Positions 56,030 through 56,780 of a stretch of DNA of 64,000 bases are shown here, in pieces. Where the stretch lies: positions 19,381 to 83,380 of the forward strand of contig BQML01000019.1 of NCBI GenBank assembly GCA_022180565.1, given 5' to 3'. Below the pieces are notes generated by a model that saw only the letters and a program-made list of their open reading frames with translations, was not told the DNA's origin and ran no database searches. Made by a program: the position numbers and the translations under genes. Source of the DNA: Bacteroidia bacterium. GTDB taxonomy: Bacteria > Bacteroidota > Ignavibacteria > UBA10030. Position 1 is the first letter of the stretch. Every line of letters starts with the position of its first letter.

Positions 56030-56780
56030 GGAGGGCGTGCGTGCAACACAATTCTGTAAACCTCTACTAATCTGTTGAGCCGTGCATCATACACCACCCC
56101 CTCTTGGGCCGCTTGACAATCAAAAAAAAAGGAGATTTTCCAAATGTGTCTCGGGCAATAGCCACCCCTCAATGAAGCATCCGAGTCATATAAGTATTGC
56201 CCTTCAGAGTGCAAGAGAGGTTTTGAGCGGGAGCTACGACGGAATTCAACGTGTCGCTGAGACTGCCGCGGAAGTAGAATGTCCTCATCCCAACTTCGAA
56301 AAGTATTTCCGCATTCCACAACCATCCCTTCGAGGGCATACCTCTATAGAGTCAGAGTATTAAGACCGAAGAGGTTGATTCGAAGAGAATTCAAACTTTA
56401 CTCAGCGGCGAGAGGGATCGGATATCACGGTGAAATAGTACTCATACGTCCCTTGAAGCCCATTCTTGGTATTACTCCTGGGAAAGTGGTTGCTTACTCA
56501 TCCCAACCGACTCAAAGATGTAAAGGAAACATCGAAGTCATAATTGACAATCATTGGTTGTTGAACAATTGTTTGCAGTAGAACACGTTTAAGCACTGTA
56601 CCCCAGCCAAGGTGCGCTATATGAGGTCAAGCATACGGCGTCCCAAAGACACTCATACGACAAAAGGACGGAAGCGTTCGGAATGTTTGGAACGGGAAAC
56701 TGACCGTCGACCAGTTGCGCGAAGTCGCAAAAACCCTCTCTTTATACTAGATGAACTTTTTCATAAAATGGAGGTGCTCT

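Follow-up and report, generated by a model that had tools for sequence, protein, structure and literature searches.

What occupies the roughly 750 bp (751 bp, positions 56030-56780) between the annotated start of a PIG-L-domain gene (56029) and that of a divergently oriented peptide gene (56781) in the 64,000-nucleotide stretch of DNA analysed here, the window? The initial annotation had described a long divergent gap without a convincing open reading frame (ORF), and the length of this gap is indeed unusual: it contains no intact gene, and the median ORF spacing in the window is 30 nt. This median is the sole value that was used from a crude ORF map, which counts the spurious ORFs within the gap as genes. 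The ORFs of 93-107 aa inside it represent fragments or readings in the wrong frame. Protein-coding sequence is otherwise missing over a long stretch only at 27749-28781 on the minus strand, where five tRNA genes (Trp, Thr, Gly, Tyr, Thr) form a cluster.

The compositional drop noticed on first reading was reproduced by a windowed GC analysis. The GC content of the gap is 0.465 compared with a window mean of 0.562; values this low occur in just 0.19% of sliding 751-bp windows, and the minimum of the whole stretch falls in the gap. The gap is AT-rich in a relative sense only.

Such a region could hold a structured RNA, regulatory sequence, or nothing more than the residue of former genes. The last reading is very probably the correct one: the gap consists of the remains of three genes, a frameshifted pseudogene of AraC type and the scar of a deletion in a mauE and a thioredoxin-fold gene, and is the product of ordinary gene decay. 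The features of the locus are compiled in Table 1.

Table 1. Features of the gap and its flanks in the window, and corresponding or related features in metagenome contigs (L numbers)
Feature	Position	Strand	Basis and remarks
PIG-L-domain gene	53510-56029	minus	Pfam PIG-L 53.7 bits
Non-coding 5' region, PIG-L to former regulator gene	56030-56171		L085 pairwise alignment; 142 bp
Pseudogene of a small 123-aa single-domain AraC/HTH_18 regulator	56172-56542	+	Pfam, tblastn, L085 alignment
Former regulator-mauE spacer	56543-56621	+	Aligns to L085 3546-3621; 79 bp
Approximately the first four mauE codons, ATG AGG TCA AGC (L085 GTG AGT TCA CGA)	56622-56633	+	Alignments
Deletion junction	56633-56634		blastn segments, global alignment
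Thioredoxin-fold 3' stub, 39 codons + TAG, YGVPKTLIRQKDGSVRNVWNGKLTVDQLREVAKTLSLY*	56634-56750	+	tblastn; TlpA/ResA/MauD-like
Spacer with ribosome-binding site of the peptide gene, GGAGGT (56770-56775), conserved in L085	56751-56780	+	L085 alignment; 30 bp
66-aa secreted peptide gene, 8 Cys, intact	56781-56981	+	L085 ortholog 83% identical
L085 AraC-type regulator (P0001), 123 aa	L085 3174-3545	+	HTH_18 53.7, HTH_AraC 32.2 bits, both above cutoff
L085 MauE/DoxX membrane protein, CGCFG motif, 142 aa	L085 3622-4050	+	MauE 59.8 bits
L085 thioredoxin-fold protein, CPFC, 181 aa	L085 4056-4601	+	AhpC-TSA 28.5 bits; ResA, StoA, DsbE and weak MauD matches
Small-AraC cassette locus	L085 3174-8187		
Small-AraC cassette locus	L087 1732-7064		
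Small-AraC cassette locus	L086 3958-6431		
Small-AraC cassette locus	L090 7001-9113		
Small-AraC cassette locus	L094 2165-4190		
Small-AraC cassette locus	L095 1051-3905		

Comparison of the gap with an intact relative

A metagenome scan with the DUF4249 protein encoded downstream of the gap yielded three contigs, L083-L085, with 85% protein identity. L083 and L084 are identical to L085 at this locus, and the three represent one population. L085 and the window share 82-85% nucleotide identity across PIG-L and again from the peptide gene onward; between these two regions L085 carries ~860 bp that have no counterpart in the window, and three intact genes, identified with Pfam and NCBIfam models as those for an AraC-type regulator, a MauE protein and a thioredoxin-fold protein. 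A scan of a genome collection with PIG-L gave best relatives of ~53% identity (Ignavibacteriaceae MAGs); their DNA has diverged too far to be aligned, but the scan supplied the synteny comparison with L004 described below. When the intact regulator and the peptide were used as queries in word-indexed protein searches, the only match in either case was the ortholog of the L085 population.

The comparison also concerns the PIG-L gene itself, whose annotated ATG (56029, minus strand) is probably the wrong start. In the relevant stretch (55975-56029), a 1-nt indel in L085 near window position 55991 puts the equivalent ATG out of frame. The PIG-L frame common to both sequences starts near TTG 55975, behind an AAGGAGG, and encodes a typical signal peptide, (M)RRSFGVIAALLFPAIFLSAQ. 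With a start near 55975 the non-coding span would be ~805 bp.

Within the gap, the ORF 56279-56581 matched Pfam HTH_18 with 23.2 bits (E 8.8e-5; cutoff 33.6), and three-frame translation located the upstream part of the domain in another frame. With the two frames joined, the score rose to 27.9 bits (E 2.9e-6), still below the cutoff, and the joined translation also matched several NCBIfam models of the AraC family. The distribution of the domain over two frames, together with the rise in score upon joining them, suggests a frameshifted regulator gene. In a tblastn search the L085 regulator protein matched the window in two frames (E 1.3e-20 and 4e-10) at the syntenic position, and a phmmer search against 1.84 billion representatives found small AraC proteins only (top match 59% identity, E 5e-15). 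Relative to L085, the gene contains a -1 frameshift at ~56276/56277 (GG to G) and a +1 frameshift at ~56483 (AA to AAA), both in short homopolymers. Translation from the original ATG at 56172 runs into a premature stop (TAA, 56361-56363); the original stop, TAA at 56540-56542, is retained.

The constraint on this sequence is relaxed. After frame correction, the regulator remnant is 58% identical to the L085 protein, compared with 86-87% for PIG-L and DUF4249. Its dN/dS versus L085 is 0.73, as against 0.11 for PIG-L and 0.15 for DUF4249, and relative to synonymous changes the remnant has significantly more non-synonymous ones than PIG-L (Fisher p=1.4e-8). Three residues that are invariant in six intact family members (Y39, R48, G51) are changed in the window, and G36 lies at the frameshift. 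With respect to membership in the AraC/XylS family (PF12833, PF00165), the remnant stays below the score threshold and lacks an uninterrupted frame across both HTH motifs; an intact ortholog at this locus in L085 does show that it descends from a bona fide family member. Judged by these alignments, the regulator of the window is a decayed, frameshifted AraC-family pseudogene.

Could part of it still be at work? The ORF 56279-56581 (100 aa) might still yield a shortened HTH protein acting as regulator of the peptide and transporter genes. It has an ATG start, keeps region 7-77 of the 80 positions of HTH_18 as well as many family-invariant residues (LRK, KLY, GY), and the dN/dS of the middle segment alone is 0.49 and thus below one. 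This ratio, however, blends the lineage of L085, which is still under constraint, with that of the window. Moreover, the ORF is without the first 37 residues, which are the first helices of the two-HTH domain, its C-terminus is frameshifted, its score is below the Pfam cutoff, and in addition to the three residues named above it has lost the H and W of the IRHWK motif, which are likewise invariant in all six intact homologs. A surviving short regulator is therefore very unlikely, and we regard the whole segment as a pseudogene.

On the two sides of the deletion junction, blastn aligned window 56169-56617 with L085 3171-3620 and window 56631 onward with L085 4482 onward. About 845 bp of the relative (L085 ~3637-4481) are missing from the window, with a possible 3-nt ACG microhomology at the junction. 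The deletion took mauE from codon 5 on and thioredoxin codons 1-142, including the CPFC active site. The thioredoxin stub, whose frame differs from that of the remaining mauE start, matches residues 142-179 of the L085 protein in tblastn (84% protein identity, E 1.3e-16) and is 88% identical to L085 at the nucleotide level. Of the MauE family (PF07291), the window thus has ~4 codons and no membrane domain with CXC motif, and a tblastn search with the L085 MauE protein gave no match elsewhere in the 64 kb. Likewise the 39 last codons do not make a TlpA/ResA/MauD-like protein, as the CPFC motif of L085 lies in the deleted part. Taken together, gene remnants make up 500 of the 751 bp; the rest consists of the 142-bp 5' region, the 79-bp spacer and the 30-bp spacer with the ribosome-binding site, all of ordinary size.

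Structured RNA, palindromes and promoter-like sequence

The initial annotation had thought of a structured ncRNA, a riboswitch or a leader governing one or both flanking genes. A long, ORF-poor region of lower GC with conserved non-coding blocks, as present at 56102-56160 and in the spacer 56543-56621, would be in line with this. However, Rfam at gathering thresholds reported no family in 55900-57100 and, in the whole window, the five tRNAs only; at E<=10 the sole match in 55900-57100 was the archaeal snoRNA sR16 (15.3 bits versus a cutoff of 70, E 5.1). The test for structure was made on the folding energy of the window sequence, L085 being the one relative alignable at the DNA level. Compared with dinucleotide shuffles, the gap showed no difference: for the three non-coding parts, folded on either strand, z lay between -0.60 and +0.99, and the whole region gave 0.05. 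The 5' region scored -0.39 on the plus and -0.60 on the minus strand, the spacer 56543-56621 -0.18 and +0.48. A promoter and terminator scan of the region found no terminator-like sites or hairpins, and two thirds of the gap, the 500 bp described above, are homologous to protein-coding sequence of L085. A structured RNA is thus even less probable than a surviving regulator. In the proposed check of conservation by alignment, coding remnants account for most of the gap, and the non-coding block 56102-56160 is conserved as well.

A dense regulatory region is likewise not supported, and this block is what survives of the regulatory idea. It lies in the 5' part, comprises TTGACA, A9 and GGAGAT...TCTCGGGCAATA, and is ~80% conserved with L085 3035-3095; it is probably promoter or operator sequence. 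The exact TTGACA was found where it had been reported (56113-56118). The poly-A run, nine A followed by GGAG, is also real and occupies 56122-56134, one base off the position first given. The promoter scan yielded one sigma-70-like site (56741-56769), at a shuffle expectation of 1.1, which is not conserved in L085. A repeat search of 55900-57100 gave short two-copy matches only; the pair formed by TTGACAATCA at 56113 and 56544 is not conserved in L085.

The two lineages differ by a remodelling of the region 5' of the regulator gene (L085 3096-3161 versus window 56061-56101). Immediately ahead of the regulator start, L085 carries ~66 additional nt that include an inverted repeat rich in G and C, GGGTGGGG...CCCCGCC; the window carries ~28 additional nt farther upstream of the regulator.

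A perfect 10-bp palindrome, AACAATTGTT, had been pointed out as a conspicuous element of the gap. It exists, four bases away from the reported position (at 56564-56573), but its presence is what chance would produce. The window contains 56 perfect 10-bp palindromes, or ~0.66 per 750 bp, a second one (CTCTATAGAG) is found in the same gap at 56342, and in Markov simulations of the region the probability of at least one was 0.47. The corresponding L085 sequence is AACAATTCTT, in which the palindrome is broken. A palindromic operator would be expected to exceed chance and to be conserved in orthologous loci; AACAATTGTT is neither, and is a chance palindrome.

The same nucleotides are part of an 11-bp-spaced direct repeat, TTGTTGAAC-AA-TTGTTTGCA, at window 56559-56578. 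The corresponding sequence of L085 (3559-3578) is TTCTTGAAC-AA-TTCTTTGGA, with the identical G-to-C change in both repeat units. The small AraC protein could have used this direct repeat, situated between the former regulator and mauE genes, as an operator with two half-sites; with no more than two sequences compared, the agreement may also be coincidental.

Direction of change and low GC content

Three more distant contigs, L087-L089, contain a small AraC gene (regulator 39% identical), MauE, a thioredoxin-fold protein, an 8-Cys signal-peptide protein, a lipoprotein and a TonB-dependent transporter in the same order. The full gene order in these distant contigs indicates that the intact state is ancestral. 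Since in addition both ends of the missing segment have been kept, loss in the lineage of the window is the parsimonious assumption. The sequence of the window is reproducible: an exact look-up of the PIG-L protein led to two public assemblies from different runs (DRR335822 and SRR8466083), in which 55900-57200 is 100% identical.

Least probable of all is that the difference is an insertion in L085 or that frameshifts and deletion are assembly or sequencing errors. Only two lineages are comparable at the DNA level, and both indels, GG to G and AA to AAA, affect short homopolymers. However, the four mauE and 39 thioredoxin codons of the window would not arise from an insertion in L085, which is also at odds with the gene order in L087-L089, and an artefact explains neither the identical sequence in unrelated runs nor the excess of amino-acid changes.

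On the gene-decay reading, the ancestor had a plus-strand, operon-like row of genes between PIG-L and the peptide, namely a small AraC regulator, MauE (a DsbB analogue with CXC) and a thioredoxin-fold CxxC protein (MauD/DsbA-like), and this row continued with the 8-Cys secreted peptide, the DUF4249 lipoprotein and the TonB-dependent transporter. In the lineage of the window, the regulator gene gained the two 1-nt indels in short homopolymers and has drifted since, and a single deletion of ~845 bp joined mauE codon 4, out of frame, to the last 39 thioredoxin codons. As the peptide, lid and transporter genes are still conserved, they are probably still transcribed through the remnants from the old promoter or promoters, for which the block 56102-56160 and the spacer 56543-56621 are candidate sites. 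The scar would then be an accidental long leader, and the disulfides of the peptide would now be made by some other oxidase of the cell.

Two observations do not fit long-standing decay. The dS of the regulator remnant (0.31) is lower than that of PIG-L (0.68), and the thioredoxin stub still has the high identity to L085 given above. Either the genes decayed rather recently, or some other constraint acts on part of the scar. For the order and timing of the indels and the deletion there is one alignable relative at the DNA level, as L083-L085 are one population.

In its features the locus resembles other bacterial pseudogenes and deletion scars, with frameshifts in homopolymers, a raised dN/dS, a kept old stop and ribosome-binding site, and a single internal deletion that leaves both gene ends. 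Compared with ordinary gene decay, it is particular only in what was lost (the regulator and dedicated disulfide machinery) while the client peptide and the transporter were kept.

The low GC content is not a product of this decay, because the genes of the cassette are low in GC even where they are intact: in L085 the values are 0.42 for the regulator, 0.45 for MauE and 0.48 for the thioredoxin-fold gene, compared with 0.58 for PIG-L, and the distant cassette in L087 shows the same low-GC pattern. Furthermore, the block 56030-60294, i.e. regulator remnant, peptide, DUF4249 and TonB-dependent transporter, is absent from an Ignavibacteriae MAG (L004, compared at 5279-5974). There, DUF2214 and AhpC-like genes abut PIG-L with a 191-bp spacer; in the window the DUF2214/AhpC-like pair is situated downstream of the cassette (60382-62113). 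The block 56030-60294 is thus an accessory cassette, gained in the lineage of the window or lost in L004. Its absence from L004 and the low GC of its intact genes support the earlier hint at a horizontal origin of the locus.

The intact cassette and related systems

The gene directly 3' of the scar encodes a peptide with a signal peptide and the mature sequence GPQWCSVVCPANCFHGSCQCEINPNWDCLTWCQSGCP, in which the cysteines are arranged near-symmetrically (CxxxCxxxC...CxC...CxxxCxxxC). The mature part differs from that of L085 by 3 changes, and all 8 Cys are kept. It belongs to no Pfam family, and its sole homolog in 5.8 billion proteins was the ortholog of the L085 population. The match to the 'Cys-Xaa-Xaa-Xaa repeat radical SAM target' model was weak and non-significant (E 0.03-0.14). 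An exact look-up of a 76-aa version of the peptide found it not to be on record. The peptide gene is followed on the same strand by those for a DUF4249 lipoprotein (32.3 bits) and a transporter with CarboxypepD_reg/Plug domains.

A profile built from six intact small AraC proteins was run against 5.8 billion proteins and recovered 14 clusters at E<=1e-10, mostly of 110-130 aa, and thus a rare family of single-domain AraC proteins. Its genes lie directly upstream, on the same strand, of MauE and/or a thioredoxin-fold CxxC protein and of a small secreted protein of 66-85 aa that is rich in cysteine (4-8 Cys). At some loci these are joined by a DUF4249-type lipoprotein and a TonB-dependent transporter; at others, by an ABC transporter or a stand-alone Peptidase_C39. 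The linkage as a cassette was seen in L085 and L087-L089, with variants in L086, L090, L094 and L095. Literature searches found no paper on MauE with TonB-dependent and cysteine-rich, and none on the linkage of small AraC, redox and Cys-rich proteins.

MarA, SoxS and RamA are single-domain AraC/XylS regulators of ~107-127 aa that comprise the DNA-binding domain only. The L085 regulator (P0001) and its relatives are built in the same way, from the two-HTH AraC DNA-binding domain alone, and score above the HTH_18 and HTH_AraC cutoffs. However, against the models of these three proteins the L085 regulator reaches 22-25 bits versus cutoffs of 174-250, its family adjoins genes for Cys-rich peptides and redox proteins instead of efflux or stress regulons, and the copy in the window is broken. 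The small AraC protein is probably the regulator of the cassette.

MauE can replace DsbB in E. coli; it has a CXC active site and probably acts via a thioredoxin-fold partner like MauD or DsbA (Gonzalez et al., bioRxiv 10.64898/2026.03.05.709764). In L085, MauE (C-G-C-F-G) and a thioredoxin-fold CxxC protein directly precede a small secreted protein with multiple Cys, much as the methylamine dehydrogenase cluster combines MauE/MauD with a small enzyme subunit that has six disulfides. In contrast to that cluster, L085 is without other mau genes, the client is a 66-aa peptide, and in the window the pair is deleted. The role of the deleted pair was likely the oxidative folding of the adjacent 8-Cys peptide, which is presumably the client of the lost MauE and thioredoxin-fold proteins.

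DUF4249 lipoproteins have been proposed to be the lids of non-SusC TonB-dependent transporters (Price, Deutschbauer, Arkin, bioRxiv 10.1101/2023.03.17.533168). The pair downstream of the scar has the same order as BT2172/BT2173, a transporter and its DUF4249 lid, and is likewise encoded on the same strand. It differs from BT2172/BT2173 in its linkage with genes for a small AraC regulator, MauE and a thioredoxin-fold protein and for a Cys-rich peptide, a link that is not described in those papers.

It is conceivable, if rather improbable as a whole, that these genes form an undescribed cassette in which the AraC regulator controls the MauE/thioredoxin pair and the pair matures the 8-Cys peptide, which would serve the transporter and its DUF4249 lid as a ligand or as a carrier of a ligand such as a metal. 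In that case the strain of the window would have lost regulation and dedicated folding, and may be a constitutive or 'user-only' variant in which peptide and uptake genes have been retained.

Decayed genes alone can hence account for a conspicuous long 'AT-rich' intergenic region, and one related contig decides the matter where Rfam, folding and motif scans say nothing. The lost genes point to a rare AraC subfamily tied to MauE/thioredoxin redox genes and secreted Cys-rich peptides, and the intact cassette is the more interesting object. The strain of the window, a natural variant without the regulator and folding genes and with the peptide and transporter, could be used to test the function of this cassette.
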